This document shows positions 4,672-63,462 of a DNA stretch of 64,000 bases, one piece after another. The position numbers were made by a program, and so were the translations under genes. Where the stretch lies: the NCBI RefSeq assembly GCF_000027125.1, contig NC_017626.1; one strand, written 5' to 3'. Below the pieces are notes generated by a model that ran no database searches, had not been told where the DNA came from, and worked only from the letters and a program-made list of their open reading frames with translations. Each line of letters starts with the position of its first letter. Within the stretch, counting starts at the first letter, position 1. The stretch is from Escherichia coli 042 (GTDB taxonomy: Bacteria > Pseudomonadota > Gammaproteobacteria > Enterobacterales > Enterobacteriaceae).

Positions 4672-5502
4672 GACTTATCCTAATGCGATAACAACTTTGT
4701 ATAAGCTGATTGTACAGGAACTGGAGAGTTTCACCAGTGGCGGCTTTTGGACATCATTGGGGTGGCGTAGCGGTTTTTTTTTTATTTTTTTCGTTAAAAT
4801 ACATATTGTTAATTGTTTTTTATTGCGGAGGGGAACTGTCTATATCTTCTCATGCATCGGGATTTTTAACAGGCCTGAGCTGGCATGTTCTACCGTTTCA
4901 CACAGAAAGGAACAGTTAGTTTCAAACGGATACTTATCAATCAGTGGTGTGAGAAATGCTAAGAGTGGGAAACGCACTTAATTTTATGATTTCTTAGTGA
5001 CCAGTTTTTAACCATGAGCTAATCTTAAAATCTGATTTTTATCAATGAGTTAATGTTGATGTACTATGCGGCAATGAATGAAGTGTATTGCCATTCCGAA
5101 TTTTTGCTCATTTTTTAGCCATTTCCATACTTTTTTGCGTGAATATTTTATGAACAATGTTCCTTTCATAACTTATCTGTCTCAAATGATACGTTTGGAG
5201 TTTACAATTACTAAATATTTAATGTAAGTGGGAACAGCTATTTTTTGTTCATATTAGCTCCCAGCAGCAAAAGATGATGTAATTCATCCGGTGCAGAGAT
5301 AATATAGGAATGGATAATCTGGAGAGCGACTCTGCAGGCTGATATTGCGGTTTTGCGGCAAGTTTTTGGCATCCGCTTCTACGCCAAATACCTGAAGTAG
5401 GAATGGATGCGTTAGCAGCATACATCCGGATCTGCGCGGGGAATAGCCGGAAACGGCTATCCCTACCACAATAGCTAACTTTGTAATAGTGCCCTTTTAG
5501 GC

Positions 5503-6534
5503 TCATGTACTCTGACGTAATTCTATCTGGTAGTTGAATTGCACGATACGCGACTCTTCTGATTCATCATGATTATTATTCAATAGCCCAATCAGTAACT
5601 TACCCGTCTCTATCCCCATTTTTTTGTAGTCAATACGGATGGATGTCAAGGTTGGGTGTGTTTGATCGCAATTGTCTGAACCATCAAGACAAGCTACAGC
5701 GATATTTTCAGGAATTTTTAACAAACGCCGCTGGCACTCAAACATGATACCCAGCGCAATCTCTTCGTGGCTGCAAATCACAGCATCCAGCTCTGGTTGT
5801 CGCAGTAATATCTCGTTTAATGCGTAACGCCCCAATTGCAGACTTGCGGCATCCGGCATGGTGATAACAAGATCAGAGTTCTGGTAATGGCTCAACATTG
5901 CTTTATGCCAGCCGTTCAGTTGCTGACGTTGCAGGCGGTTGTCCATATGCGCACCGATAAATCCGATATTCTTATAACCCTGTTCCAGCAGATGTTCGGT
6001 CAGTTTATGTGATGCTTCAAAAAATGCTGTTTCGATGGTAATTTGAGCCGGACTGAAAGGGGAACCGACAACGTTAATGGTAGGTATATTTGTTTTCTCG
6101 AGTATCTGGTGAGTTTTATCAGCCAACTGAGAACCAAAAATAACTAACGCCGCCGGGTTGCCTTGAAGAAGCGTCATCAGAATTTCAGCTTCTTTGAGCT
6201 GATTATACTCATGACACCCAAGCAGTAGCTGGAATTCATTTTTATTAAGCACCTGCTGCAACGACTGCATAAAGCGGGAGCTGGCTTTATCTGTCAGGGA
6301 AGGAACCAGTACGGCGACTGTATCACTGTGACCAGATGCAAGGGCGCCAGCAGTTCTGTTGGGAATATAACCCAACTCTTCTACGGCCTGTTCTATCTTT
6401 TCCCTCAGCTTGTCAGATACCTGTTCCGGTGTTCTCAGCGCACGGGAAACGGTCATGGTTCCGACACCTGCAAAGTTAGCGACCTCCTGCAGCGTCACCC
6501 GTCCGGTACCACGGCGCTTACGTGTTTTTTCCAT
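5503..6534 (-). CDS. LacI/GalR-family transcriptional regulator
   Basis: N-terminal HTH VTLQEVANFAGVGTMTVSRAL followed by a periplasmic-binding-protein-like sugar-binding domain; 343 aa; divergent from the PTS genes. Confidence 0.85.
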   Translation of the reverse strand: MEKTRKRRGTGRVTLQEVANFAGVGTMTVSRALRTPEQVSDKLREKIEQAVEELGYIPNRTAGALASGHSDTVAVLVPSLTDKASSRFMQSLQQVLNKNEFQLLLGCHEYNQLKEAEILMTLLQGNPAALVIFGSQLADKTHQILEKTNIPTINVVGSPFSPAQITIETAFFEASHKLTEHLLEQGYKNIGFIGAHMDNRLQRQQLNGWHKAMLSHYQNSDLVITMPDAASLQLGRYALNEILLRQPELDAVICSHEEIALGIMFECQRRLLKIPENIAVACLDGSDNCDQTHPTLTSIRIDYKKMGIETGKLLIGLLNNNHDESEESRIVQFNYQIELRQST

Positions 6535-7563: not shown

Positions 7564-8820
7564 ATGGATTTCTTTCGTTTTTTGATGAGCGATGTACTTT
7601 CCGAACCCGCAGTGCTGGTCGGTTTAATCGCCCTGATTGGCCTGATTGCACAGAAAAAACCGGTAACCGAATGCATTAAAGGTACCGTCAAGACCATTAT
7701 GGGGTTTGTGATTTTAGGCGCAGGGGCGGGTTTAGTTGTGTCGTCACTGGGTGACTTCGCAAACATTTTCCAGCATGCCTTTGGTATTCAGGGTGTAGTG
7801 CCGAACAATGAAGCCATTGTTTCCGTAGCGCAGAAAAGCTTCGGGAAAGAAATGGCGATGATTATGTTCTTTGCGATGGTTATCAACATTATGATTGCCC
7901 GTTTCACACCGTGGAAATTTATCTTCCTGACCGGTCATCACACGTTGTTTATGTCGATGATGGTAGCGGTAATTCTGTCAACAGCAGGCATGACCGGCAT
8001 TACGCTTATAGCCGTTGGCTCTTTGGTTGTTGGCGTGGCAATGGTCTTTTTCCCGGCTATTGCGCATCCGTACATGAAGAAAGTGACCGGTTCTGATGAC
8101 GTTGCCATCGGCCACTTCTCAACATTATCTTATGTATTGGCTGGTTTCATCGGCAGCAAGTTTGGTAATAAAGAGCACTCGACTGAAGACATGAATGTGC
8201 CGAAAAGTCTGCTGTTCTTGCGCGACACGCCGGTTGCTATCTCTTTTACCATGAGCATAATTTTCCTGGTGACGTGCCTGTTTGCGGGTGCAGATGCGGT
8301 GAAAGAGCTTAGCGGTGGTAAAAACTGGTTCATGTTCTCTATCATGCAATCCATTACCTTCGCAGCTGGCGTGTACATCATTCTGCAGGGTGTGCGCATG
8401 GTGATTGCGGAGATTGTCCCGGCATTCAAAGGTATTTCAGACAAGCTGGTTCCGAATGCCAGACCTGCTCTCGATTGCCCGGTCGTCTTCCCTTACGCAC
8501 CTAACGCTGTACTGGTTGGTTTCCTGAGTAGCTTTGCTGCAGGTTTAATCGGTATGTTCACGTTGTATCTGCTGAACATGATCGTGATTATTCCTGGTGT
8601 GGTGCCGCACTTCTTCGTAGGTGCAGCTGCAGGGGTATTCGGTAATGCAACGGGTGGACGTCGTGGTGCGATTTTGGGTGCCTTCGCTCAAGGCTTGCTT
8701 ATTACCTTCCTGCCAGTATTCTTATTGCCGGTGCTGGGTGATATTGGTTTTGCTAACACCACCTTCAGTGATGCTGACTTTGGCGCACTGGGTATTTTGT
8801 TAGGGATTATCGTTCGCTAA
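7564..8820 (+). CDS. PTS EIIC permease, ascorbate family (UlaA/SgaT-like)
   Basis: 418 aa polytopic membrane protein immediately downstream of EIIA and EIIB. Confidence 0.8.
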   Translation: MDFFRFLMSDVLSEPAVLVGLIALIGLIAQKKPVTECIKGTVKTIMGFVILGAGAGLVVSSLGDFANIFQHAFGIQGVVPNNEAIVSVAQKSFGKEMAMIMFFAMVINIMIARFTPWKFIFLTGHHTLFMSMMVAVILSTAGMTGITLIAVGSLVVGVAMVFFPAIAHPYMKKVTGSDDVAIGHFSTLSYVLAGFIGSKFGNKEHSTEDMNVPKSLLFLRDTPVAISFTMSIIFLVTCLFAGADAVKELSGGKNWFMFSIMQSITFAAGVYIILQGVRMVIAEIVPAFKGISDKLVPNARPALDCPVVFPYAPNAVLVGFLSSFAAGLIGMFTLYLLNMIVIIPGVVPHFFVGAAAGVFGNATGGRRGAILGAFAQGLLITFLPVFLLPVLGDIGFANTTFSDADFGALGILLGIIVR

Positions 8821-8835
8821 TATTTTGATGACATT

Positions 8836-8892
8836 AATATCCTCCAGGATTTCAGGAACGTGGAGGATATTAATTCCTCTTATTTTCTCCAT
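8836..8892 (+). terminator. Rho-independent terminator after PTS EIIC
   Basis: Perfect 13-bp inverted repeat ttaatatcctcca / tggaggatattaa around a 14-nt loop, followed by T-rich run. Confidence 0.55.
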
Positions 8893-9066
8893 TTTTCTTT
8901 CTTCCAGTCAGGACTGCATCCGATTAATCGTAAGCGCTCCGAGAAGTACGTAGCGTAAGGATTATTTTACAGCTGAGAAGTTTCAGTGCAGCAGTTCATG
9001 CACACGGTTCGACGGCTAGTCATTGATCTTCATAATTACCTCGCGTAAAAAACGGGGTAAGGCCGC

Positions 9067-9496
<430 letters not shown>

Positions 9497-9537
9497 TGAC
9501 CAGTTTTTGTTGACCACTACAAATAAATAAAAGAGTT

Positions 9538-9612
9538 GCAGTGCTTGCTCGGTAAGAAAACAATGGAAGTTGAGATCCTCAAAGAAGCTGTGGAGTACAC
9601 CACTCTACAGTA
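9538..9612 (+). pseudogene. IS2-like (IS3 family) orfA C-terminal remnant
   Basis: Translation [22 protein letters not shown] matches C-terminus of IS2 InsC ([24 protein letters not shown]) at 15084-15449. Confidence 0.5.
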
Positions 9613-9741
9613 GTTGCGCAAATTTGGAGTGGACGATAATGTGATCGTCTATAAGGGCAACGCTATCATAGTCTTGTCCTGGCGGGTAAAAAAGCGCGCT
9701 TACCTTAACGATAAGCGCGCCGCTGTTCAGGCCTTGAGTGG

Positions 9742-10755
9742 TTATTCAATTCCTGTGGTGACTGTAAAAGTGCGCGTTTGCTGCGGTGCAACCTGAATCA
9801 GCGTGCCATTACGTTGCGCGGCAAGATACCCCTCAGGCCGACAGGTTGCAGGTAATGCAAAGGCGGCTACCTGTTGCTCTCCGTTATAAAGGATCCAGCG
9901 TGTCACATAATTTAGTTCAGCACTGTAGAAACGAGTAACAAACGTAGTGCCATCGGGAGAGATCATGCGAAACTCTGGCTGATCTGTATAAGCGTCCAGT
10001 TTGTCTGCAAAGAAGACAATTTCTGGATCATAAAATTCCGGTTGACTCAGCGTCGACAGAGAGGCTTCTCCCTGCATAATCCGTTGATTAAACGCCAGCC
10101 ACTGAGCGGTGGGATTAACATGCGAAGGCACTGATTCACGCAATCTTAATATTTCGTCCGGGATATTCTGGCTGAATGTAGCATTTGGTATATATGCATA
10201 ATTCATGTGGCACATATATTGTAGTGGCATATCTACAGAAGCCAGATTGGTTACGGCCATCTTAATATCGAACAGTGTAGAGGATTTGTGAAGGACCACT
10301 GTTGGTTGAGCCAGATAATGATGACCGAAACCCATTACATACTCGTAACGCCCGTTAAGGCGTAACATATCTCCGTCTAATTCCAGCCATGCTTCATCCA
10401 TCGCGGCACAGGCCATTTCACCGTGTAGCAGATGAGTATCTTCCGCAGATGGGCAGCCATTAGCCAGCAAACCTGAATGAAAAGCAAAACAGCCATAGGT
10501 CTCTATCACCTCTGTCGCCGGTTTAGGCTGGCGAAACATATTGCACATGGTGAGGCCGTGTCCATCAAATTGCGCATCCCAAATCATCTGCCCCATCCAG
10601 GGAAGAATAATCAAATGTCCACGACTGTTTGCAATTTTAAGCCCCTCGACACCGCTGTCATAGCGAAAAGACGTGACAGTAAAATCACTATTTTCCAGCA
10701 AGATACGAGGTTTCTCGCCAAAAAGCGCCCGCCACAAATTAATACGCGTACTCAT
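9742..10755 (-). CDS. deoX: DeoX-like protein of the deoK operon (putative deoxyribose mutarotase-type)
   Basis: 337-aa ORF at distal end of kinase-permease operon; assignment by synteny with the deoQKPX operon described in Salmonella and pathogenic E. coli. Confidence 0.5.
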   Translation of the reverse strand: MSTRINLWRALFGEKPRILLENSDFTVTSFRYDSGVEGLKIANSRGHLIILPWMGQMIWDAQFDGHGLTMCNMFRQPKPATEVIETYGCFAFHSGLLANGCPSAEDTHLLHGEMACAAMDEAWLELDGDMLRLNGRYEYVMGFGHHYLAQPTVVLHKSSTLFDIKMAVTNLASVDMPLQYMCHMNYAYIPNATFSQNIPDEILRLRESVPSHVNPTAQWLAFNQRIMQGEASLSTLSQPEFYDPEIVFFADKLDAYTDQPEFRMISPDGTTFVTRFYSAELNYVTRWILYNGEQQVAAFALPATCRPEGYLAAQRNGTLIQVAPQQTRTFTVTTGIE

Positions 10756-10766
10756 AACGGTTCTCC

Positions 10767-12083
10767 TCAGGACGCTGTGACTTCAGCCAGTGCGGTACGT
10801 ACTTTGCTTTCACGCCAGAAGTAGACTCCGACATAGACAAAGCAGAGCATAGAAACCAGGAATGAAAGCTGTAGTGAGTGGAACATATCTGCAATATATC
10901 CCTGAATTGCCGGAACCACCGCGGCACCGACAATAGCCATAACAATGACTGCTCCTGCCATTTCTGTATGTTCGTTATCAACTGTATCCAGTGTTCCTGC
11001 ATAGATCGTCGCCCAGCAAGGGCCAAACAAAACACTTACCAGGACGGCGACATAGACCGCGCTGAAACTTGGAGCCAGTGCAACATATGCCAGGAACAGC
11101 GCCCCTATAACGGAATAGAGAATCAATACTTTTTCCGGATTAAAACGCGTCATAAGGATGTTGGCTATAAACTTGCCAATAAAGAAGCAGGCAAAGCTAT
11201 AGACCATGAAGTTTGAAGCATCACGTTCGTTGATATCGCCCAACTCCAGCGCCAGACGGATGGTAAATGACCATACTGCGACCTGCATACCCACATAAAG
11301 GAACTGCGCCACAATACCGCGACGAAAGCGCGGATTTCTAGCCAGATAGCGCAGCGTATCCATTGCTGACGGGCGTTTATAGTGACTTGTCTGTGCCACT
11401 TTACAGGTTGGGAAGCGGGTTAAAAGGAACAACACCATGACCACAACCAGAATCATAATCATATACTTATACGGTTCAAGGGTGTTCTCTAACATCAGCA
11501 CCTTAAAGTTGTGAATTTGCTCGGCGTTCATTCCGGACATCTGCTTCTCAAGGCTTTCCCCCTCGGAGAAAACCAGATATTTGCCCAATAAAATACCAGA
11601 CGCAGCACCAATCGGATAAAAGGTCTGGCTGATATTGAGCCGCAATGTGGCATAGGCTTTTGGACCGATCATTGAACTGTATGTGTTCGCTGCAGTTTCA
11701 AGGAAACTCAGGCCAATCGCAATCGCAAAAATAGCTGCAAGGAACATAGTGTAGGTTGCCATATGCGAGGCAGGGAAAAAAAGTGTACAACCACCAATAT
11801 ACAGCGTCAGGCCAATTAAAATTGCCACCTTATAACTGGTCTTTTTAATCACAAGGGATGCTGGTATTGCAATTAAAAAATAACCTCCATAAAATGCGCT
11901 CTGCACCAATGCTGAAGCAAAGTTACTTAGCGAAAATACACTTTTGAATTGAGTGATTAATATGTCATTTAATGCAGCTGCGCATCCCCATAGCGGGAAT
12001 AAACACGATAACAAAATAAACTGGAACAAGGGAGTCTTATTCAGATACCCATCAGGCATCTGAATGATGTTTTTATCGTTCAT
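10767..12083 (-). CDS. deoP: MFS sugar permease, FucP-like (deoxyribose permease)
   Basis: 438 aa, ~12 predicted TM segments, L-fucose:H+ symporter-type; between kinase and deoX. Confidence 0.75.
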   Translation of the reverse strand: MNDKNIIQMPDGYLNKTPLFQFILLSCLFPLWGCAAALNDILITQFKSVFSLSNFASALVQSAFYGGYFLIAIPASLVIKKTSYKVAILIGLTLYIGGCTLFFPASHMATYTMFLAAIFAIAIGLSFLETAANTYSSMIGPKAYATLRLNISQTFYPIGAASGILLGKYLVFSEGESLEKQMSGMNAEQIHNFKVLMLENTLEPYKYMIMILVVVMVLFLLTRFPTCKVAQTSHYKRPSAMDTLRYLARNPRFRRGIVAQFLYVGMQVAVWSFTIRLALELGDINERDASNFMVYSFACFFIGKFIANILMTRFNPEKVLILYSVIGALFLAYVALAPSFSAVYVAVLVSVLFGPCWATIYAGTLDTVDNEHTEMAGAVIVMAIVGAAVVPAIQGYIADMFHSLQLSFLVSMLCFVYVGVYFWRESKVRTALAEVTAS

Positions 12084-13031: not shown

Positions 13032-13333
13032 TTCACTACCTCTTATAAACTTTCGCATAACAATGGTATTTAAATAACATTAGCATGTTACTTTTGCATC
13101 ATTTGTGACTGAGATCGCGATTAGCACATCAACCCGATGTTTATTTAATAGACTTCCAGTCTCATCACTCAGGCCAACACTATCTAATCATAAGCAACCT
13201 AACAAGATTAGTGCCCAAAACTCAGCAGCCTATACCCTTTTCATTTCAAAGGGGCGGTCGTATAGTATGGTAATGAAAACAATGTTTACTAACGCCAAAA
13301 TGTTATTTTTATAACATTCTTACGGAGAGAGAG

Positions 13334-46656: not shown

Positions 46657-47004
46657 TTACAGCATGGTCAGGGAGGTCAGCAGCCGCTTGGGCTGTCGCC
46701 AGTCGATACCTTCCAGCAGCATCGCCAGCTGCGCCTGCGTAAGGAACACTTTGCCATCACGGGCTGACGGCCAGGCGAAGCGCCCACGCTCCAGCCGTTT
46801 GGTCAGGAGGCACAGTCCGTCACCGGTGGACCACAGCAGTTTAACCTGACTGCCGCTGCGGCCCCGGAAAATGAAAATATGGCCGGACATGGGATCGTCT
46901 TTCAGCGCCGTTTGTACTTTCGCAGCCAGGCCGTTGAAGCTATTTCTCATATCGGTGATACCGGCAACCAGCCAAATTTTGGTCCCGGAAGGTAACGGGA
47001 TCAT
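46657..47004 (-). CDS. tnpB: IS66-family TnpB
   Basis: [26 protein letters not shown]... Confidence 0.85.
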
Positions 47005-47381
47005 CGCTTCAGTTCCTGTATCAGCAGAGTCAGGAGCTTTTCGCTGACATTGCCATTGAAGCGGAGCGTCCCGTGCCGGAACGTTACCTCACAGCTGATA
47101 CTGAGGGTTTCCGGGTCCTCTGCGAGCGATTCTGGCTGTTCGGCAGCTGCATCGAGAGTCACAGGAAGTAGCTGGGGGCTCTCTGAAGAAGGTAATAGCA
47201 GCTTTCCCTCGCGCCATTGTTGTCGCCATTTGAACAACAGATTGGCGTTAATGCCATTTTCAAGAGCAAGTTTTGAGATGGATATCCCGGGTTCACAGGA
47301 GGCAGCAACGAGCAGCTGTTTAAATTCGGGAGGATAATTAGGGAAGCCTTTTCGCCTGCCGGGAGTCACATTTTTCTGCAT
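47001..47381 (-). CDS. tnpA: IS66-family TnpA
   Basis: ...PEFKQLLVAASCEPGISISKLALENGINANLLFKWR...; start placed at ATG 47379-47381. Confidence 0.8.
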   Translation of the reverse strand: MQKNVTPGRRKGFPNYPPEFKQLLVAASCEPGISISKLALENGINANLLFKWRQQWREGKLLLPSSESPQLLPVTLDAAAEQPESLAEDPETLSISCEVTFRHGTLRFNGNVSEKLLTLLIQELKR

Positions 47382-47473
47382 ATCTGACACTTTGGTTCCC
47401 ACTACTTATTTGGTGGACACCACTTTGTCTAATTCGTCAGATTCTGACCAGACGGTTCAGGCTGTACGCTTAC

Positions 47474-48818: not shown

Positions 48819-49424
48819 TCAACTCCGGCTACAGCCAAAATTGCGCTCACCGGTGCAGTGAGCTTTGGTATGCTCCTTCGCCAGATAGTCAGCACGTTCC
48901 AGCACTTGCTGAAAGCCGGTGTCATCATTACGCGCCAGCCACACCGCCGGCCAGGCCGGAAAATGCACCAGCGTGGCATGGCACCCGACATCCACTCCCA
49001 GGGCACTGCACCACGCCTGTTTAATCATCCCGGCCAGAGACTCCGGAGCGCGGTAATCACCGGCACGACACCAGGTATCCCGGTTGACCAGCAGCATCAG
49101 GTGATAGTGTTTTTTACCTTTGCACTCCCCAAACTCCCGGGCCCAGACGTAATGCAGGGTTGTGGGATGCACGCGTTTACCTTCCCGATGCTTACGTTTC
49201 TGGTAAGCGTCGATTCGGGCTTTCAGGGCATTGATGAAGCGGGATATCACAGCTGCGTCCGTTGCTGCCGGTACATCCGGGAGACGCAGGTCAACCCGCA
49301 ATGCCGTCAGGCGGGGATGAACATTCAGTGCGTGCCGCACCGTCTCACGAATACGTTGCTGCCAGAAGGGGTTGTATTTGTAGGTCATGGTTAAATCTCC
49401 GTATGGTTCATACGGAATAGCCAC
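48819..49424 (-). CDS. Hypothetical protein (201 aa); possibly inovirus Gp2-like family (tentative)
   Basis: Supplied ORF MAIPYEPYGDLTMTYKYNPFWQQRIRETV...; upstream of the Cys-rich pair on the same strand. Confidence 0.5.
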   Translation of the reverse strand: MAIPYEPYGDLTMTYKYNPFWQQRIRETVRHALNVHPRLTALRVDLRLPDVPAATDAAVISRFINALKARIDAYQKRKHREGKRVHPTTLHYVWAREFGECKGKKHYHLMLLVNRDTWCRAGDYRAPESLAGMIKQAWCSALGVDVGCHATLVHFPAWPAVWLARNDDTGFQQVLERADYLAKEHTKAHCTGERNFGCSRS

Positions 49425-49586
49425 GTCGTAAAAAATACGCAGAGTCCCTGAAGTGACCTCCGGCAGGACACTGTCTCAGGCACTCTGTGATAACCCGAAC
49501 GGTCGTCTCCGGACTGACGGTTGAATTTTCAGCGTCGTTTTTTAATGTAAAAAACCGGTTACGGGTAAGGCTGTGAGGAGGGAGTG

Positions 49587-49787
49587 ATGGTGATACGCAA
49601 AAAGAAGTGCAGGGACTGTGGAAACGCGATTACTCATAATACAGTGTGTTGCCCGTATTGTGGTTCTGTCGACCCCTTCGGCTACTACCGGAATACAGAC
49701 CGTATCGTTACCATACTGCTGGCGCTGATTATTGTGGTCCTGCTGACTACTGTCAGCGTCAGTGTGTGTATACTGTGTAGCTGGTGA
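49587..49787 (+). CDS. Small zinc-ribbon membrane protein (66 aa)
   Basis: CRDCGN...CCPYCGS followed by one hydrophobic helix IVTILLALIIVVLLTTVSVSV; GGAGGGAG SD before ATG 49587. Confidence 0.45.
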   Translation: MVIRKKKCRDCGNAITHNTVCCPYCGSVDPFGYYRNTDRIVTILLALIIVVLLTTVSVSVCILCSW

Positions 49788-51016
49788 GATAACGGTTCAT
49801 GTATCCCCTGAGCTGACAGTGTACCGTGTATATTAAGCGTAACCGACAGGTTCTCCTTCATACCATATTAAATTTTCCAGGGATTGCCGCTGCCTTATTT
49901 CGTCCCATACAGGAAAACTCATCTGGGTTTCTGACAAATACGCGAAACTCACAGCCCCTCAATATCAACCACACGTTGTAAGCCGGTAATACCTGAAAAT
50001 CAGCCTATTACCGCCCACGCCTCCGGCACCATTCCCTTTTGATTTCGAATTCTTTGTTGTCGCTATACCGCTTAATGTTCCCGGTCCTCCGGTGCAGATA
50101 ACACCGGAGTCATCGTAGCGCTGCTTCAATATTCAGGTGACATATTTCCAGACGGAAGCCGGCGCGCGATCGTAAAGTTTGTTCATTGTCAGTTCTGCCA
50201 GCCGGTTGTCAACGGCAGAGTTAAAGGCTTCCAGCTCCGCAAGGGTAAGTTTATAACGCGTGTGGGAATTCACTTTTCCCGCGTCTCCTGACGTATTACG
50301 GGCTGCCACTTACCAGGTGTCCCGCAATACAGCCTTAGTGTTCCGTTATCGGGGATCCGGACGCACCGCAACAACCGGGGAAGTATTTCTGGTTTAGAGC
50401 AGTGTCAAGAGGGATTTCTCAGCCCCTCACTCACCGGCTCAGTCTCAGGGCAGGAGCATTAATACGCTCAGTTCATGTCTTATACAGGAATGGGCACAGG
50501 GGGAGCTGGCGTGTCACTGCTGATTTTACGCATCAGCGTTCATGTATCTGCACTCTGATACATGAACGATTCACAGCGCTCTGTTACCGGAGAGATTTAC
50601 TCTCTTAGCTTACTCTGGCAAATCCTTTACGTTACTCTCTGATGACTTCTTATATTTATAATACCAATCAGACAGCCTTATCCCATCGGTGATATCAGTC
50701 TCCTCCTCGCCAGGAACGGGCTGACTCACTGTAACCACCTCCGAAAACAACTCTGCAATTATCAGAACGCCTGCTTCTCTCCCTGTCCTCACGAAAACTA
50801 TCCCCTCTTTATCGCGCGTGCGTGCGGAAGCATCTTTTCGCAACAACCACCCGGTATACCGGTACGGCTCAGCCACCGCAACCTCCCCGTTTATCTCCTG
50901 GCGGTCACATTCCCGATTATTTTTTACGTTTCTCCCCGGTTGTTATGCCGGTGAAGGTGGCGCGCTGTTTTCATGACCACACCGGCTGGTTTAACAACAT
51001 CCGGAGGAACATTCTC

Positions 51017-51223
51017 ATGGCTACCCCAGTTTCACTGATGGATGACCAGATGGTCGACATGGCATTTATCACTCAACTGACCGGCCTGACAGATAAGTGG
51101 TTTTACAGGCTCATCAGGGATGGGGCCTTTCCGGCTCCCATCAAGCTGGGCCGCAGCTCCCGCTGGCTGAAAAGTGAAGTGGAAGCCTGGCTGCAGGCGC
51201 GTATTGCACAGCCCCGCCCGTAA
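51017..51223 (+). CDS. alpA: AlpA-family prophage transcriptional regulator
   Basis: MATPVSLMDDQMVDMAFITQLTGLTDKWFYRLIRDGAFPAPIKLGRSSRWLKSEVEAWL; GGAGG SD 9 nt upstream. Confidence 0.8.
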   Translation: MATPVSLMDDQMVDMAFITQLTGLTDKWFYRLIRDGAFPAPIKLGRSSRWLKSEVEAWLQARIAQPRP

Positions 51224-51311
51224 TTTCTGACCGTTATCCGTTCACCCGCAGCAGACGTAATCCCCGGCCTGCCGGCGGCATTCTGCTGCCTGTTATATCC
51301 CCGTGAGGAAT

Positions 51312-51920
51312 ATGAAAATGAAACAACAGTATCAGACCCGCTACGAATGGCTCCACGAAAGCTACCAGAAATGGCTGACCGGCTTCACCCGGCACGCCGT
51401 ATCCTGGGGCGTGTGTCATCCGAATATCTACTACTTCCATAATCTGACGCCCGGTTGGGTGTCATTCAATGGTGAAAAACCGGAGATTGCCATCGTACCC
51501 CAGAGCCTGCACCGGCTGATTTATGGCCCTGACAAACGGGCCACGCCGCCCCTGGATGATGATCTGATTGTGAATTTATGCACCAGTGAACATCTGCTGG
51601 TTCATCATCCGATGCTGGAAGGCATTCTCCTGTCTGAATGTGAACGTCTGAGGCAGCGTTCTCTGGCAAATAAACTGATCAGCCTCTTCCGTCAGTTTGG
51701 TGGCACGGAGTTGCGCCTCAAACTGGTCTGGCTTTGCTGGCTTGATTTAATGACCGGAAACAGCCTTGAAGACTGGAAAGAGAACCTGAAACGGAAATCA
51801 GAAAAAGAGCTGGAGGAATGGATCATCAACCGTCAGAGGCAGAGCGCAGCACTGACGGATCTGATGGATCAGTACGTGCTCCTGGCATACCGCACAACGG
51901 TTGACGATAGCCGCAACTGA
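51312..51920 (+). CDS. Hypothetical protein (~203 aa), island cargo
   Basis: Supplied ORF; start codon among clustered ATGs at 51312-51320 is uncertain. Confidence 0.45.
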   Translation: MKMKQQYQTRYEWLHESYQKWLTGFTRHAVSWGVCHPNIYYFHNLTPGWVSFNGEKPEIAIVPQSLHRLIYGPDKRATPPLDDDLIVNLCTSEHLLVHHPMLEGILLSECERLRQRSLANKLISLFRQFGGTELRLKLVWLCWLDLMTGNSLEDWKENLKRKSEKELEEWIINRQRQSAALTDLMDQYVLLAYRTTVDDSRN

Positions 51921-53122
51921 TGCCGGTTGCTTCCGGAAGGTGTGACAAAATACGGAAATGATGATGCTCCCGGCCCTGCATGCTCACCTGCAGAGCGTGT
52001 TCGTCGTCATCATACTGAGCCATGACGGGCGTCTTAAGGGCATCCTGTCATTGCTGAGCAGGCAACACCACCAGAGGAGCCACGGACAGGGATGTTCTTT
52101 ACAGCCCGATACACGCCAGGTTCTCAGCAGACTGAATGTGCAGGTGCGGTTATTCACCAGAAATGGCATGCTGCGGTACATACCCATCCTGGTGACAATA
52201 TGTACGTGGCGACAGCGATCCCGGCACTGTGGAAGAGACTCACTCAGCCTGCAGGATATTCTTTCCGGCATCCGGGAATGTCCGCCTGAATGCAAACAGG
52301 ATGATATTTGAATCCGTAATACTGTTCTTTCATCATAAATAATTTATGCAGATACAGTTAACCGTTACAGTAGCCGGTTTGTTTTACCGGGAAATAATAT
52401 CCGTCAGACTGATGCCGGAACATATCTGAAACACGTTATGATGTTTTGTTATCAGAAATGTTGTATATTCTTATCCGTGGCGACAGTTTAATGCCCTCTG
52501 GTATCACCTTGGATAATGCATATCCTGCGATGATTCGTTATATTTACGGGACACGCCTCTTTTCATTGTGCTCCTTTTCAGACTTCATTTTCCGTAAGTG
52601 TTCCCCGGCATAAAGGAGGTACCTTTCTGGCGTTTATAACTCTCTTTATCGGTGACGCCGGTAATACAGGGAATACCACACCGACAAACGAGGTATTAAC
52701 AGACGATATTTCAGTGTCCATAATTTTTCTGTCCGGTTAAATAACGTCAGTCTGCTGCCCTCTGACTGTAATCATCAAAGCCGGAATGCATACCGGGTTA
52801 CAACGTAAAAAAAGTGATGCTGGCCCCCGGTGCAGCTGGCGGGCGAAACATGTTTACCTTTCAATACCCCCTGTCTGCAGTCTCCACTCTTCCATCCTCT
52901 TAAGCTACGTCGGCCACATGAGTGCACTTCCATGATAACAGGTATTCCTGTCAGCATAACGAAGCTGGTTACCTTCCCTTCCTCCTGCATTTCCTGTCAG
53001 AATGACTGTACAGCGCGCAGATTGCCTTTTTATTGACCACCTTAATATACCATTATAAACTTCTTTTTATCATGTTATTATCACCTTATTATGTTTAATT
53101 TTTAAGCAGCCGGAGAAAGGGG

Positions 53123-54001
53123 ATGGTTCAGAAAATTTTGTCGGATAAGGTTATGAATGAAAGAACAAATGCGTATTACTCTTATTATCTTGGAGGGCGT
53201 AATATCTCCGTACTGCCCCTTAATGTTTATGATCCCCCGGAACGTTTTATCGCTTACATAAAAAAAAACAGAGAAAATCTGAACATCACACTTTCAGATT
53301 TTGAACTTGAACAAATAATTTCTGGTATGCGTCTGAAGGCCCTGGCCTTCCTGGTCCCCCTGGAAAAAATATCCTGGATCGCGGGCAGTGAACGCGCATG
53401 CTTATTTTCCTGGTATCTGTTGATGCAGTTTATCCAGAATAACAGGGCAAAAATAAGCGCAGACTTGCTTCAAAAGAATAAACTGTATCTTAAAGAAGAG
53501 TATCTGGAAGGGAATGCCTTCCCGTCGGACTCATCGACACAGTTCAGACAAATACTCAGAGTTCTCGATATTCTTTCTGATAAGAATTTGCGGGATGAGT
53601 GGATAATCCAGACCAAAGACAGATGGATGCGGGCATTTAAATCAAAGAGTCCTTTCAGTTACCTCCTCCCGGAGAACGAACATGAATGCATATGGACATG
53701 GAATTATTTGAAGGGAAAAAATATTGCACTGGAAAAACTGGCCAGTTTTCCTGGTTCTGCTGATATTTACCACGCAATTCACCTTTCATTTGACATATGG
53801 GTTACCTGTCCACTCACCTCACCTGACGATATAAAAAATTTCAGAAACAGTTTCAATAAGGCCAAGGCGCAGCGCAAGTACAAAAAATGCAGGAAGATAA
53901 AGTCAATGTACAGTTTTTTCTTGACGCAGAAACCAGGGCGCAGCTCAAAGAATTATCGAGGGTCAGAAGACTCAGTACCGGCGAAATGCTGCATGACCTG
54001 A
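53123..54001 (+). CDS. Hypothetical protein (292 aa), AT-rich island cargo
   Basis: Supplied ORF; contains A9 homopolymer at ~53255-53263; an alternative frame over the last ~150 bp encodes MQEDKVNVQFFLDAETRAQLKELSRVRRLSTGEMLHDLIVEEYKRYRHSR*. Confidence 0.4.
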   Translation: MVQKILSDKVMNERTNAYYSYYLGGRNISVLPLNVYDPPERFIAYIKKNRENLNITLSDFELEQIISGMRLKALAFLVPLEKISWIAGSERACLFSWYLLMQFIQNNRAKISADLLQKNKLYLKEEYLEGNAFPSDSSTQFRQILRVLDILSDKNLRDEWIIQTKDRWMRAFKSKSPFSYLLPENEHECIWTWNYLKGKNIALEKLASFPGSADIYHAIHLSFDIWVTCPLTSPDDIKNFRNSFNKAKAQRKYKKCRKIKSMYSFFLTQKPGRSSKNYRGSEDSVPAKCCMT

Positions 54002-54065
54002 TTGTTGAAGAGTATAAAAGGTACCGACATTCCAGATAATTTCAGACATATATTATCTCTGTGAG

Positions 54066-54108
54066 TCCCCCGCCACCTTTCCGGTGTGCGGGGGTTTTGT
54101 CTTTTTTC
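54066..54108 (+). terminator. Rho-independent terminator
   Basis: GC stem cccccgc ... gcggggg with short loop, followed by ttttgtctttttt. Confidence 0.5.
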
Positions 54109-54123
54109 ACCGGGAATACATGT

Positions 54124-54996
54124 ATGAATCCGTCTGATGCCATTGAGGCAATTGAAAAACCGCTCTCCTCCCTGCCTTACTCACTTTCCCGTCACATCCA
54201 GGAACATCTGCGCAAACTCACCAGTCACGAACCCGTGATTGGCATTATGGGTAAAAGCGGGGCCGGTAAATCCTCACTCTGTAATGCACTGTTTCAGGGG
54301 GAGGTCACCCCGGTCAGTGATGTTCACGCCGGCACCCGGGAAGTGCGGCGCTTCCGTCTGAGTGGCCACGGTCACAGCATGATTATCACTGACCTGCCCG
54401 GGGTGGGCGAGAGCCGGGACAGGGATGCAGAGTATGAAGCCCTGTACCGTGACATTCTGCCTGAACTTGACCTGGTACTGTGGCTGATTAAAGCCGATGA
54501 CCGTGCCCTGTCTGTGGATGAGTATTTCTGGCGACACATACTGCACCGGGGACATCAGCAGGTGCTGTTTGTGGTGACGCAGGCCGACAAAACGGAGCCC
54601 TGCCATGAATGGGATATGGCCGGCATTCAGCCTTCTCCCGCACAGGCACAGAACATTCGTGAGAAAACAGATGCGGTATTCCGGCTGTTCCGGCCCGTAC
54701 ATCCGGTTGTGGCCGTATCGGCCTGCACCGGCTGGGAACTGGATACGCTGGTCAGTGCGCTCATGACAGCGCTTCCCGACCATGCCGCCAGTCCCCTGAT
54801 GACCCGCCTGCAGGACGAGCTGCGCACGGAATCTGTCCGGTCTCAGGCCCGTGAACAGTTTACCGGTGCGGTGGACCGGATATTTGACACGGCGGAGAGC
54901 GTCTGTATTGCCTCTGTTGCACGCACGGTTCTGCGTGCCGTCCGTGACTCGGTGGTCTCTGTTGCCCGCGCTGTATGGAACTGGATTTTCTTCTGA
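54124..54996 (+). CDS. yeeP: YeeP/YfjP/YkfA-family GTPase
   Basis: MNPSDAIEAIEK...; G1 motif GIMGKSGAGKSS, ITDLPG; start at ATG 54124. Confidence 0.8.
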   Translation: MNPSDAIEAIEKPLSSLPYSLSRHIQEHLRKLTSHEPVIGIMGKSGAGKSSLCNALFQGEVTPVSDVHAGTREVRRFRLSGHGHSMIITDLPGVGESRDRDAEYEALYRDILPELDLVLWLIKADDRALSVDEYFWRHILHRGHQQVLFVVTQADKTEPCHEWDMAGIQPSPAQAQNIREKTDAVFRLFRPVHPVVAVSACTGWELDTLVSALMTALPDHAASPLMTRLQDELRTESVRSQAREQFTGAVDRIFDTAESVCIASVARTVLRAVRDSVVSVARAVWNWIFF

Positions 54997-55104
54997 ACAG
55001 TCTGCCAGGGGAAATGCCTGATTACATTGCGTTAACCAACTGAAAACATGACACAAACACCTCATGCTCCTCCTGTTTCTCTTGCGTGACCGCCTTGCAA
55101 TCAA

Positions 55105-55160
55105 TAGAATAAAACGATCGATAAAACAGGTATCGATCGTTACTATCGATCGTTTATAGT
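55105..55160 (+). promoter_or_regulatory. Antigen 43 phase-variation switch (three Dam GATC sites, OxyR site)
   Basis: GATC at 55116-55119, 55135-55138 and 55148-55151, embedded in repeated cgatcg(a/t)t units, ~220 bp upstream of flu start. Confidence 0.65.
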
Positions 55161-55368
55161 GGTTAATGGTCTGCGAAAAGGCAGCTGAATCTCTTCATCA
55201 TGCAGAACGGAATTGCACACAACGGACTGATACTTCTCTGGCGGATGAGAGAGGGGAAGCATTTATGCCCGGGAAAAACCACTTTATCTGACCATGCTGT
55301 TTTGTACCTGCCGGTATCCACATTTGTGGGTACCGGCTTTTTTATTCACCCTCTGTAAGGAAAAGCTG

Positions 55369-58215
55369 ATGAAACGACATCTGAACACCAGCTACAGGCT
55401 GGTATGGAATCACATTACGGGCACCCTGGTGGTGGCTTCCGAACTGGCGCGCTCACGGGGAAAACGCACCGGTGTGGCGGTTGCGCTGTCTCTTGCTGCT
55501 GTCACGTCAGTCCCGGTACTGGCTGCTGACACGGTCGTACAGGCGGGAGAAACCGTGAGCGGCGGAACACTGACAAATCATGACAACCAGATTGTCTTCG
55601 GTACGGCCAACGGAATGACCATCAGTACCGGTCTGGAGTATGGGCCGGATAACGAGGCCAATACCGGCGGACAATGGATACAAAATGGCGGTATCGCCAA
55701 CAACACTACTGTCACCGGTGGTGGTCTTCAGAGAGTGAATGCCGGAGGAAGCGTTTCAGACACGGTTATCAGTGCCGGAGGCGGACAGAGCCTTCAGGGG
55801 CAGGCAGTGAACACCACTCTGAACGGCGGTGAGCAGTGGGTACATGAAGGCGGGATTGCAACGGGTACCGTCATTAATGAGAAGGGCTGGCAGGCCGTCA
55901 AATCCGGCGCAATGGCAACCGACACGGTTGTGAATACCGGCGCGGAAGGGGGACCGGATGCAGAAAATGGTGATACCGGGCAGTTTGTTCGCGGAAATGC
56001 CGTACGTACCACTATCAATGAAAATGGTCGTCAGATTGTGGCTGCTGAAGGAACAGCAAATACCACTGTGGTTTATGCCGGCGGCGACCAGACGGTACAC
56101 GGGCATGCGCTGGATACCACACTGAATGGCGGTTACCAGTATGTGCACAACGGAGGCACAGCCTCTGACACGGTTGTAAACAGTGACGGCTGGCAGATTG
56201 TCAAGGAAGGTGGTCTGGCGGATTTCACCACCGTTAACCAGAAAGGCAAACTGCAGGTGAACGCCGGTGGTACAGCCACGAATGTCACCCTGAAGCAGGG
56301 AGGCGCACTGGTCACCAGTACGGCGGCAACCGTCACCGGCAGCAACCGTCTGGGCAATTTCACTGTGGAAAACGGTAATGCTGACGGTGTTGTTCTGGAG
56401 TCCGGTGGTCGCCTGGATGTACTGGAGGGCCATTCAGCCTGGAAAACACTGGTGGATGACGGCGGAACCCTGGCAGTGTCTGCCGGTGGTAAGGCAACAG
56501 ATGTCACCATGACATCCGGTAGTGCCCTGATTGCAGACAGTGGTGCCACTGTTGAGGGGACCAATGCCAGCGGTAAGTTCAGTATTGATGGCACATCCGG
56601 TCAGGCCAGCGGACTGCTGCTGGAAAATGGCGGCAGCTTTACGGTTAATGCCGGAGGACTGGCCAGCAACACCACTGTCGGACATCGTGGAACACTGACG
56701 CTGGCTGCCGGGGGAAGTCTGAGTGGCAGAACACAGCTCAGTAAAGGTGCCAGCATGGTACTGAATGGCGATGTGGTCAGTACCGGCGATATTGTTAACG
56801 CAGGGGAGATTCGCTTTGATAATCAGACGACACCGGATGCCGCGCTGAGCCGTGCTGTTGCAAAAGGCGACTCCCCGGTAACGTTCCATAAACTGACCAC
56901 CAGTAACCTCACCGGTCAGGGTGGCACCATCAATATGCGTGTTCGCCTTGATGGCAGCAATACCTCTGACCAGCTGGTGATTAATGGTGGTCAGGCAACC
57001 GGCAAAACCTGGCTTGCGTTTACAAATGTCGGAAACAGTAACCTCGGGGTGGCAACCTCCGGACAGGGTATCCGGGTTGTGGATGCACAGAATGGCGCCA
57101 CCACAGAAGAAGGTGCGTTTGCCCTGAGTCGCCCGCTTCAGGCCGGCGCCTTTAACTACACCCTGAACCGTGACAGCGATGAAGACTGGTACCTGCGCAG
57201 TGAAAATGCTTATCGTGCTGAAGTCCCCCTGTATACATCCATGCTGACACAGGCAATGGACTATGACCGGATTCTGGCAGGCTCCCGCAGCCATCAGACC
57301 GGTGTAAACGGTGAAAATAACAGCGTCCGTCTCAGCATTCAGGGCGGTCATCTCGGTCACGATAACAACGGCGGTATTGCCCGTGGAGCCACGCCGGAAA
57401 GCAGCGGCAGCTATGGCTTCGTCCGTCTGGAGGGTGACCTGCTCAGAACAGAGGTTGCCGGTATGTCTCTGACGACAGGGGTGCATGGTGCCGCAGGCCA
57501 TTCTTCCGTTGATGTTAAGGATGATGACGGTTCCCGCGCCGGCACGGTCCGGGATGATGCCGGCAGCCTGGGCGGATACCTGAATCTGACACACACGTCC
57601 TCCGGCCTGTGGGCTGACATTGTGGCACAGGGAACCCGCCACAGCATGAAAGCGTCATCGGACAATAACGACTTCCGCGCCCGCGGCTGGGGCTGGCTGG
57701 GCTCACTGGAAACCGGTCTGCCCTTCAGTATCACTGACAACCTGATGCTGGAGCCACAACTGCAGTATACCTGGCAGGGACTTTCCCTGGATGACGGCCA
57801 GGATAACGCCGGTTATGTGAAGTTCGGGCATGGCAGTGCACAACATGTGCGTGCCGGTTTCCGTCTGGGCAGCCACAACGATATGAGCTTTGGTGAAGGC
57901 ACCTCATCCCGTGACACCCTGCGCGACAGTGCAAAACACCGTGTGCGTGAACTGCCGGTGAACTGGTGGGTACAGCCTTCTGTTATCCGCACCTTCAGTT
58001 CCCGGGGTGACATGAGCATGGGGACAGCCGCCGCCGGCAGTAACATGACGTTCTCACCGTCCCGGAATGGCACGTCACTGGACCTGCAGGCCGGACTGGA
58101 AGCCCGTGTCCGGGAAAATATCACCCTGGGCGTTCAGGCCGGTTATGCCCACAGTGTCAGCGGCAGCAGCGCTGAAGGTTATAACGGTCAGGCCACGCTG
58201 AATGTGACTTTCTGA
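55369..58215 (+). CDS. flu: Antigen 43 autotransporter adhesin (948 aa)
   Basis: [33 protein letters not shown]... signal/extended leader, beta-helical passenger repeats, C-terminal beta-barrel ending ...GQATLNVTF. Confidence 0.9.
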
Positions 58216-62142: not shown

Positions 62143-63048
62143 CTATATTTCCAGACACCTGTTATCACTTAACCCATTACTGGCTTGCTGCCGTAGATAT
62201 TCCCGTGGCGAGCGATAACCCAGTGCACTATGCGGATGCCATTCGTTATAATGCTCGAACGCCTCTGCAAGGTTCTTTGCTGCCGTTAACCCGTCTGGTT
62301 TGGGCATGACACTGATGTAGTCACGCTTTATCGTTTTCACGAAGCTCTCTGCTATGCCGTTACTCTCCGGACTCCGCACCGCCGTGTTCTTCGGTTCAGG
62401 CCCCAACATCCGGGCAAACTGCCGTGTTTCATTAGCCCGGTAGCATGAACCATTATCCGTCAGCCACTCTACTGGAGACGCCGGAAGCTCGTTGCCGAAA
62501 CGGCGTTCCACCGCTCCCAGCATGACGTCCTGTACTGTTTCACTGTTGAAGCCGCCCGTAGTGACCGCCCAGTGCAGTGCCTCACGGTCACAGCAGTCCA
62601 GCGCGAACGTGACTCGCAGTTTTTCTCCGTTATCACAGCGGAACTCGAACCCGTCAGAGCACCATCGCTGATTACTTTCTTTCACAGCCACTCTGCCGGT
62701 ATGTGCCCGTTTCGATGGCGGTACAGCGGGTTTTCGCTCAAGCAACAGCGCATTCTGGCGCATGATCCGGTAAATACGTTTGGCATTGATCGCAGGCATA
62801 CCATCAAGTTCGGCCTGTCTACGAAGCAGCGCCCATACCCGACGATAACCATATGTGGGCAGCTCTCCGATAACATGGTGTATACGGAGAAGCACATCCG
62901 TATCATCTGAGTGACGGCTGCGGCGACCATCTTTCCAGTCATCGGTTCGTCTGAGAATGACGTGCAACTGCGCACGCGACACCCGGAGACAACGGCTGAC
63001 TAAGCTTACTCCCCATCCCCGGGCAATAAGGGCGCGTGCGCTATCCAC
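62143..63048 (-). CDS. insD: IS2 transposase OrfB (InsD, 301 aa)
   Basis: Full-length DDE transposase ending ...RCLEI. Confidence 0.9.
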
Positions 63049-63371
63049 TTTTTTGCACGCCCATATTCAACGGCTTCTTTAAGGAGTTCATTTTCCATCG
63101 TTTTTTTGCCGAGCAGGCGCTGGAGTTCTTTAATCTGCTTCATGGCGGCAGCAAGTTCAGAGGCAGGAACGACCTGTTCTCCTGCGGCCACAGCAGTAAG
63201 ACTTCCCTCCTGGTATTGCTTGCGCCAGAGAAATAACTGGCTGGCTGCCACACCGTGTTGCCGGGCAACAAGGGAGACTGTCATTCCCGGTTCAAAACTC
63301 TGCTGAACAATAGCGATCTTTTCCTGTGTAGTACGCCGTCTGCGTTTCTCCGGTCCTAAGACATCAATCAT
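63006..63371 (-). CDS. insC: IS2 transposase OrfA (InsC)
   Basis: [18 protein letters not shown]... Confidence 0.9.
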
Positions 63372-63462
63372 CTGCTCTCCAATGACTAGTCTAAAAACTA
63401 GTATTAAGACTATCACTTAAATAAGTGATATTGGTTGTTTGGAGATTCAGGGGGCCAGTCTA

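Follow-up and report, generated by a model that had tools for sequence, protein, structure and literature searches.

Introduction

Islands that combine AlpA and an HUH-type replication protein (Rep) with cargo and with a "moron" arm of RadC, ArdB and CbtA-CbeA genes have been described as a class of mobile genetic elements (MGEs), and this AlpA/Rep-type class is recognized as a carrier of defense cargo and a vehicle of defense islands (PMC12458937). In CP4-57 of Escherichia coli K-12, the slot between alpA on the left and the YeeP/YfjP-type GTPase gene on the right holds such defense genes (alpA-yfjI-yfjJ-abpB-abpA-yfjM-rnlA-rnlB-yfjP). Here we analyze the equivalent slot, positions 51312-54001, in a 64,000-nt stretch of the E. 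coli 042 chromosome (NC_017626.1), referred to below as the window. A first-pass annotation had read this slot as variable cargo, consisting of two motif-free genes of about 200 and 292 amino acids (aa) on either side of a gap of about 1.2 kb, with a hint of anti-phage function drawn from CP4-57. In our analysis the segment is likely to be backbone from the center of an integrative island of the CP4-44 kind, ordinary and decayed, rather than a cargo slot with two novel genes, and its right-hand gene is a single 305-aa gene broken by the loss of one nucleotide.

This result removes a false lead: the window shows no hidden defense system and no recoding signal in the segment, which contains two backbone genes, of which one is broken, with a non-coding junction between them. 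What is modestly new is an uncharacterized, widespread protein family with a ribbon-helix-helix (RHH) and MatP-like assignment, which is probably an island regulator. Genes of this family occupy the control position in mobile islands of the AlpA/Rep type, and the assignment provides a handle on how such islands stay quiescent or get induced, as well as a route to the role of the long-unexplained YeeP/YfjP/YkfA GTPases.

Results and Discussion

The segment as island backbone

The two open reading frames (ORFs) and the ORF-poor interval between them are real (51318-51920 and 53123-54001, separated by 1202 nt), and the earlier placing of anti-phage genes in the same slot of CP4-57 was accurate, the K-12 order including abpB-abpA and rnlA-rnlB. 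The island around them matches the AlpA/Rep-type class by its alpA, its Gp2-like gene and its moron arm: DNA that is 99.9% identical carries annotations for alpA, a gene of the inovirus-Gp2 family and zinc-ribbon genes, and ORFs for DUF932, antirestriction, RadC, DUF987, CbeA and CbtA proteins were recognized by eye, against Pfam-labelled loci, at 58.6-62.0 kb of the window. Islands of the CP4-44-like class carry an integrase of the P4 type and AlpA, a Gp2-like Rep of the rolling-circle type, and a moron arm made up of GTPase, Ag43, RadC and CbtA/CbeA genes. The segment itself (51200-54100) is found at >=80% coverage in 1296 of 5426 complete E. coli genomes, about a quarter.

The left-hand gene has a fixed place as second gene of the alpA operon. 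At every locus examined (Serratia, Enterobacter and other E. coli islands, at 60% identity) it comes immediately after alpA, and its 200-aa product is 57-65% identical to proteins in Yersinia, Klebsiella, Serratia, Salmonella and others. Its 188 homologue clusters, all labelled "hypothetical", extend over E. coli, Salmonella, Yersinia, Klebsiella, Enterobacter, Serratia, Hafnia, Pantoea and other genera. Searches of Pfam, NCBIfam, PADLOC and PHROG gave no match for this protein and a search of PDB gave noise only, while its AlphaFold2 (AF2) model, with a pLDDT of only 62, is too low in confidence for a fold search.

In the canonical island, one arm runs leftward from CbtA/CbeA through the GTPase gene to the RHH-family gene, and alpA, the 200-aa gene, the Gp2-like Rep, a zinc-ribbon gene and cargo diverge rightward. 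In the window, the alpA-200aa pair is inverted relative to this order and points at the 305-aa gene (window 48819-51920 vs. 8697-10928 of comparison locus L021); the Gp2-like and zinc-ribbon genes lie on the minus strand left of alpA, with an Hha-family gene and an 88-aa gene in between. This inversion would have created the 1.2-kb non-coding junction.

The comparison with CP4-57 follows the same lines. Both slots have alpA on the left and, in the same orientation on the right, a YeeP/YfjP GTPase gene preceded by the same conserved leader hairpin; however, neither the 200-aa nor the 305-aa family is present in K-12, whose slot holds defense genes where the window has only non-coding DNA between two backbone genes. 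Other E. coli islands carry, between the alpA module and the GTPase gene, AAA-ATPase fragments with an MFS transporter, a hydrolase and a LysR regulator, or a decayed ATP-binding gene with a 290-aa paralogue of the 305-aa protein (strain TUM13770), or IS66. Thus, the content of this interval varies between islands, as the first-pass annotation had proposed, and it is empty in the window; the two genes themselves are not cargo, one being the partner of alpA and the other that of the GTPase or of the alpA/Rep module.

A single 305-aa gene broken by a one-nucleotide deletion

The 292-aa ORF (53123-54001) and the 50-aa ORF that overlaps it in an alternative frame (53887-54039) are a single 305-aa gene, broken where an A7 run has lost one A. 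The best matches in near-identical genomes measure 2902 nt against 2901 nt in the window, and RefSeq gives one 918-nt gene there (WP_000250228.1, 305 aa). Compared with NZ_CP159630, the window differs by a G/A substitution at 53196 and by one A fewer in the run 53882-53887, and by nothing else. The native frame covers 53123-53887 and the true C-terminal frame runs from about 53887 to 54039, and the window product consists of native residues 1-255 followed by 37 out-of-frame residues; the family profile matches both window frames (positions 8-265 at E 2e-62 and 250-299 at E 4.5e-12). The first-pass annotation had noticed the A6 tract with a small alternative-frame ORF after it and had suggested a decayed fusion, and both points are borne out, the small peptide being the true C-terminus, an RHH DNA-binding domain.

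Fold and DNA-binding domain of the 305-aa protein

Taken as a single sequence, the 305-aa protein has no significant match in Pfam, NCBIfam or PADLOC, and no Pfam entry exists for its family. The earlier impression of a protein without recognizable motifs therefore stands for single sequences against these databases, and gives way for the restored C-terminus, which is RHH-like. Among 73 diverse members scanned, RepB-RCR_reg (PF10723) was matched by 20 at E<=0.1 (three of them at <=0.001) and RHH_1 (PF01402) by seven; a PHROG Arc-like repressor gave a weak match to the C-terminus (E 0.1), and the family profile against PDB found the RHH protein SvtR (2kel) at E 0.0025 and CopG at E 1.3. These matches are weak one by one, yet consistent and always at residues ~255-300, and by profile match the C-terminal ~45 residues are an RHH domain of the RHH/CopG/Arc/MetJ superfamily.

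The similarity to MatP appears to extend beyond this domain. Positions 187-297 of the family profile align to MatP residues 10-131 (E 0.055-0.072, PDB hmmsearch), covering the helical bundle as well as the RHH, and a C-x-W-x-W-x-Y-L motif is common to the family and the MatP bundle. An hhalign comparison with the same MatP residues gave a probability of 88% (E 3e-6, 98 columns), each half alone reaching E~3e-4, and Pfam MatP_C was weakly matched by one of the 73 members (E 0.059). The close-family profile against PDB sequences returned nothing, and Foldseek of the 305-aa model against PDB nothing below E=1. Judged from these profile comparisons, the 305-aa protein resembles an RHH protein with a MatP-like DNA-binding core, and we do not call it a MatP-family member. 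Like MatP (E. coli/Yersinia; PDB 3vea, 4d8j, 7nyw), it appears to have over its last ~120 residues the same domain order and spacing, i.e., a helical bundle opening with the shared motif, a basic linker and then the RHH, and it would likewise be a dimeric sequence-specific DNA binder. Unlike MatP, which is encoded by a core chromosomal gene, the family is island-encoded and fast-evolving and has an extra N-terminal helical domain of ~185 aa, for which no relatives were detected. The AF2 monomer model (11 homologues) is all-helical, with pLDDT 80 and pTM 0.69. A general repeat scan of 51900-54150 turned up no palindrome resembling matS (GTGACnnnGTCAC), the site bound by MatP in the Ter macrodomain.

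The other closest known proteins are the CopG/RepB-type RHH regulators and SvtR, which the C-terminal ~45 residues match weakly but repeatedly. CopG controls repB, and the family gene likewise diverges from an operon with a Gp2-like HUH rolling-circle Rep; however, CopG-type proteins are 45-60 aa long and consist of the RHH only, whereas here the RHH is placed at the C-terminus of a protein of ~300 aa.

Spread and gene neighborhood of the 305-aa family

Full-length homologues at 49-78% identity were found in Enterobacterales only, all of them labelled "hypothetical", and an exhaustive profile search yielded 271 cluster representatives of 285-340 aa, spread over Gammaproteobacteria; a search of genome contigs with the close-family profile returned one Serratia locus. 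Foldseek against AFDB50 detected relatives in Enterobacterales, Oceanospirillales, Aeromonadales, Alteromonadales and Moraxellaceae, exclusively uncharacterized family members, a few of which are annotated as "CopG family transcriptional regulator". A literature search found no functional study on the WP accessions, Ybl124 or yfjP/ykfA/yeeP.

The place of the family gene is fixed: it diverges from the alpA/Rep module and is followed by the GTPase or the integrase gene. In Serratia, Edwardsiella and Enterobacter, a YeeP-type GTPase gene follows the orthologue (49-68% identity) on the same strand at a distance of 85-205 nt, and the orthologue diverges from an alpA/Gp2-like-Rep module. A 304-aa member with 14% identity (hhalign probability 99.95%) occupies the pre-GTPase, alpA-divergent slot of canonical E. 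coli islands, as does the 290-aa paralogue in strain TUM13770; in a distant 313-aa member the 3' end is overlapped by the GTPase gene. Five further distant members sit between a P4-type integrase gene (convergent) and a divergent alpA/Rep module. Such a position, divergent from alpA/Rep and beside the GTPase or the integrase, is that of a regulator.

In E. coli A0 34/86 a LysR gene precedes the GTPase gene, yet GCATTCCAAATAA is found ahead of the GTPase leader (13150-13180 of locus L022) and matches the last codons and stop of the window 305-aa gene, CATTCCAGATAA. This relic of the gene end in the LysR variant indicates that the RHH gene is the ancestral neighbor of the GTPase gene.

YfjH (318 aa; 3645-4601 of the K-12 locus L016) was considered as the K-12 counterpart of the family and rejected (hhalign probability 0.4%). 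It sits in CP4-57 between intA and the divergent alpA, the place held by the RHH family in small AlpA islands, and may be a non-orthologous replacement.

A probable island regulator

The 305-aa protein is probably an island regulator and would repress rep or alpA, in analogy to the way CopG/RepB proteins control the rep genes of rolling-circle replicons and to the repressors that satellites encode at int-proximal divergent control regions. The intact protein would be a dimeric regulator binding specific island sequences, its last ~120 residues acting either as the four-helix-plus-RHH core does in MatP or as an RHH regulator of the CopG/RepB type does in rolling-circle replicons, and its ~185-aa N-terminal helical domain serving in oligomerization or signal input. 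Quite likely it would regulate its own gene through the conserved AT-rich block upstream, and it would probably also set the expression of the divergent alpA-Rep operon for excision and replication, of the GTPase arm downstream, or of both. Having lost the RHH, the truncated window product should not bind DNA, and the window allele should be null.

Several observations weigh against the backbone-and-regulator interpretation. The AF2 monomer runs a helix through the expected RHH strand (residues 259-266), which in RHH dimers pairs across chains into an antiparallel beta-ribbon that enters the DNA major groove. The C-terminal coiled coil of MatP, which serves in tetramerization and DNA bridging, is absent, the family protein ending 5-6 residues past the second RHH helix. 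GTPase genes are found without a 305-aa family gene (K-12 yfjP; the LysR variant) and the family gene is found without the GTPase, so that the two are not obligate partners. In comparisons with canonical islands, DNA similarity was confined to genes and gave no breakpoints for the alpA-200aa inversion. Finally, as the neighboring GTPase and Ag43 ORFs are intact in the window, its A6 state is either a rare true mutation or one homopolymer sequencing error.

In a bolder form, which we regard as doubtful, the ~300-aa RHH family would be the master regulator of widespread gammaproteobacterial AlpA/Rep elements and a functional analogue of SaPI Stl. The MatP-like core would then keep the alpA-Rep operon silent while the N-terminal domain senses an inducing signal, e.g., a helper phage, joined in large islands by the adjacent YeeP-type GTPase. 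The family gene shares with those of SaPI Stl and phage CI master repressors a location between the integrase gene and a divergent excision/replication operon, and differs from them in being convergent with int rather than co-directional.

The GTPase leader and the possibility of a two-gene effector module

A conserved leader, at 54040-54123 in the window, was seen before every YeeP/YfjP-type GTPase gene examined, i.e., in E. coli, Serratia, Edwardsiella and Enterobacter, in the 290-aa and LysR variants and ahead of K-12 yfjP (positions 8919-9005 of locus L003, 8919-9011 of L006, ~9040-9128 of L008, 7461-7561 of L010, 13620-13711 of the K-12 locus L016 and 13170-13256 of L022). It consists of the motif TTCAGAyAGATATyAT followed by a GC-rich hairpin (about 54066-54094) and a T-run, and its end lies 14-30 nt ahead of the start codon; from lineage to lineage the stem sequences change with pairing kept. 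The leader is present even with other upstream genes (rnlB in K-12, LysR in A0 34/86). The hairpin may act as terminator for the gene before it or as attenuator, or may form the 5' stem-loop of an RNA that starts from the TATTAT box.

This hairpin bears on a rival to the regulator interpretation, namely a two-gene effector module for abortive infection or toxin-antitoxin (TA)-like defense, made up of the 305-aa RHH protein as DNA-binding or antitoxin-like controller and the YeeP-type GTPase as effector, in the place that rnlAB has in CP4-57. RHH domains are typical of type II antitoxins, the two genes stay adjacent across genera even where the family protein is down to 14% identity, and in one distant pair they overlap. 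Moreover, rnlB occupies the same position before yfjP in K-12, and the island class carries defense cargo (PMC12458937). Nevertheless, we judge such a module unlikely. The 305-aa and 200-aa proteins have no match in PADLOC (PADLOC-DB v2, E<=1), and tblastn against phage genomes found nothing, which leaves the anti-phage hint of the first-pass annotation without a counterpart in these data. The family gene occurs beside an integrase gene without the GTPase at least as often as with it, the GTPase gene occurs without the family gene, and the conserved terminator-like hairpin separates the two. In ~6% of genomes the 305-aa gene is frameshifted at its A9 run with the GTPase still annotated, which is unexpected if the product neutralizes a toxin. 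A type II TA assignment, for which one expects a small antitoxin with a usually N-terminal RHH, cotranscribed with and obligately linked to its toxin gene, in particular disagrees with the length of 305 aa, the C-terminal location of the RHH, the hairpin before the GTPase gene and the separate occurrence of each gene.

The 1.2-kb gap

The interval between the two genes (51921-53122, 1202 nt) is a mosaic composed of the tail of the alpA module, ~640 nt of orphan DNA and, in front of the 305-aa gene, its promoter/leader. Its longest ORFs (117 aa on the plus and 103 aa on the minus strand) are unsupported, six-frame translations of the gap giving no NCBIfam match. No match to the gap was found by tblastn with island and CP4-57 proteins (Gp2-like, Zn-ribbon, YfjH/I/J/M, RnlA/B, AbpA/B), and tblastx against other island variants found nothing past the first 323 nt. 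A decayed gene was considered for the gap and rejected on these searches and on the absence of codon periodicity.

Other island variants have the first part (51921-52243) after the 200-aa gene too, with 86-94% identity, and a third variant shows ~70%; its substitutions lack codon periodicity and its indels break the frame. The middle part (52244-52879) occurs only in E. coli chromosomes with this island type; in strain p10B, IS66 and IS1 are inserted in it, and it may be left over from lost cargo or mark a rearrangement junction. The last part (52880-53122) travels with the 305-aa gene, and UMNK88 has IS66 directly upstream of 52880. Here, a 65-nt block (53039-53103) is 91% identical to Serratia while the proteins are only 68% identical, and a promoter-like site lies at 53033-53061; being better conserved than the coding sequence, the block fits a promoter or operator.

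A 10-mer, TATTATCWCY, has three copies in the 64 kb against 0.23 expected (5295-5304 on the minus strand, 53076-53085 and 54051-54060 on the plus strand), two of which flank the 305-aa gene and are kept at the same two positions in Serratia. It was set aside as a shared operator, as the choice was post hoc, the copies are not kept in Edwardsiella and Enterobacter, and the two may be -10-like boxes.

Could the real cargo of the slot instead be a functional non-coding RNA, or a small protein, encoded in the gap? The 70-94% conservation of the first ~320 nt in three island variants without a coding signature, a partly conserved hairpin at 52154-52195, the 65-aa ORFs annotated by RefSeq in the gap, and the retention of the whole gap in 1285 genomes would be compatible with this. 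The last point is weakened by the recent common ancestry of the island, to which near-identity among genomes is due rather than to selection, and three variants are too few for covariation. In addition, an Rfam search at E<=1 over 49000-56000 matched only IS102/IsrC, outside the segment under study, the middle 640 nt have no relatives outside the island type and tolerate IS (insertion sequence) insertion, and promoter-like and terminator-like sites show little excess over the shuffled expectation (7 vs. 5.0 and 7 vs. 3.2, respectively). Altogether, a functional RNA or small protein as cargo appears quite unlikely.

The two A runs

Run lengths at both A tracts of the 305-aa gene were counted with short exact-match queries in the complete E. 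coli genomes having each site. At 53882-53887, the intact A7 state is present in 1255 of 1388 genomes and the A6 state of the window in two. One of these two was fetched (E. coli OXA-181, NZ_CM150779.1), and its 305-aa, GTPase and Ag43 genes are all annotated as frameshifted (2282-6086 of the fetched locus L025). This triple frameshift suggests homopolymer assembly or sequencing error rather than biology, and public A6 counts therefore need care.

The A9 run reported by the first-pass annotation is also real, though located at 53260-53268 rather than at ~53255-53263. The window state is the common one (1229/1370), with A8 in 81 and A10 in six of the 1370 genomes; the A8 genomes (~6%) include the finished EC958 (ST131) and S88. 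The A8 state simply truncates the protein, and one cluster of 111 sequences consists of a 237-aa product that starts at M69. The A9 run appears to be a recurrent site of inactivation, or a mutational hotspot, in the population.

Both A runs exceed the random-composition expectation because they encode conserved Lys-Lys pairs (YIKKN, RKYKK) as AAA AAA in an AT-rich gene. In orthologues, the two runs are A8 and A8 in Serratia, A6 and A6 in Enterobacter, and both interrupted in Edwardsiella. Programmed slippage or phase variation switching between the 292-aa product and the 305-aa RHH product, a possibility raised by the first-pass annotation, could draw on the presence of two long A runs in one gene, on both frames being open past the A6 site and on the A9 polymorphism, including that of the finished genomes, but it is highly improbable given the dominance of A7 and tract lengths that are not conserved across genera (on which we reject it), a fetched A6 genome that points to assembly error, an out-of-frame 37-residue tail that is not a conserved product, and a 0-frame TAC AAA AAA TGC that is not a canonical X XXY YYZ heptamer.

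Layout of the segment and flanking features

All named genes in region 51000-55000 are on the plus strand (Table 1). The ORF ending at 51920 has candidate starts at 51303 (GTG), 51312 and 51318 (ATG), of which ATG 51318 is favored by RefSeq and by the cross-genus alignment. GC content drops from ~55% to 39-43% over 52300-54000, the 292-aa ORF having 41% GC against ~55% in the flanks.

Table 1. Features of the analyzed segment and its immediate neighbors (positions of the whole 64,000-nt stretch).
Feature	Position	Strand	Basis or remark
alpA (AlpA-family excisionase/regulator, 68 aa; WP_000235221.1)	51017..51223	+	ORF; RefSeq annotation of 99.9% identical DNA; first gene of alpA module
200-aa alpA-linked protein (WP_000813456.1), no Pfam family	51318..51920	+	
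Conserved non-coding tail of alpA-200aa module	51921..52243		
Orphan spacer, moderately AT-rich, no coding capacity detected	52244..52879		
Putative upstream control region of 305-aa gene, with 65-nt block 53039-53103	52880..53122	+	
Frameshifted copy of 305-aa gene (intact form WP_000250228.1)	53123..54039	+	
A9 run, codons ATA AAA AAA AAC (I-K-K-N), in frame in window	53260..53268	+	
Frameshift site, A6 in window vs. A7 in intact gene	53882..53887	+	
Conserved leader of GTPase gene	54040..54123	+	
YeeP/YfjP/YkfA-type GTPase, 290 aa, intact (WP_001360328.1)	54124..54996	+	RefSeq on near-identical DNA; orthologues with MMR_HSR1 and Dynamin_N Pfam matches

The Rfam match to IS102 (RF00124; 74.6 bits, E 1.7e-11) is located between the GTPase and Ag43 genes, at 55114-55350 (+) of the window, which is the position that IsrC has in K-12 CP4-44, between yeeP and flu. 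Further out, the island core is bracketed by IS66-family TnpB and TnpA ORFs on the left (46657-47402, minus strand, just left of the zinc-ribbon genes) and by an IS3-family (IS2-like) orfA/orfB pair on the right (62143-63416, minus strand, right of cbtA).

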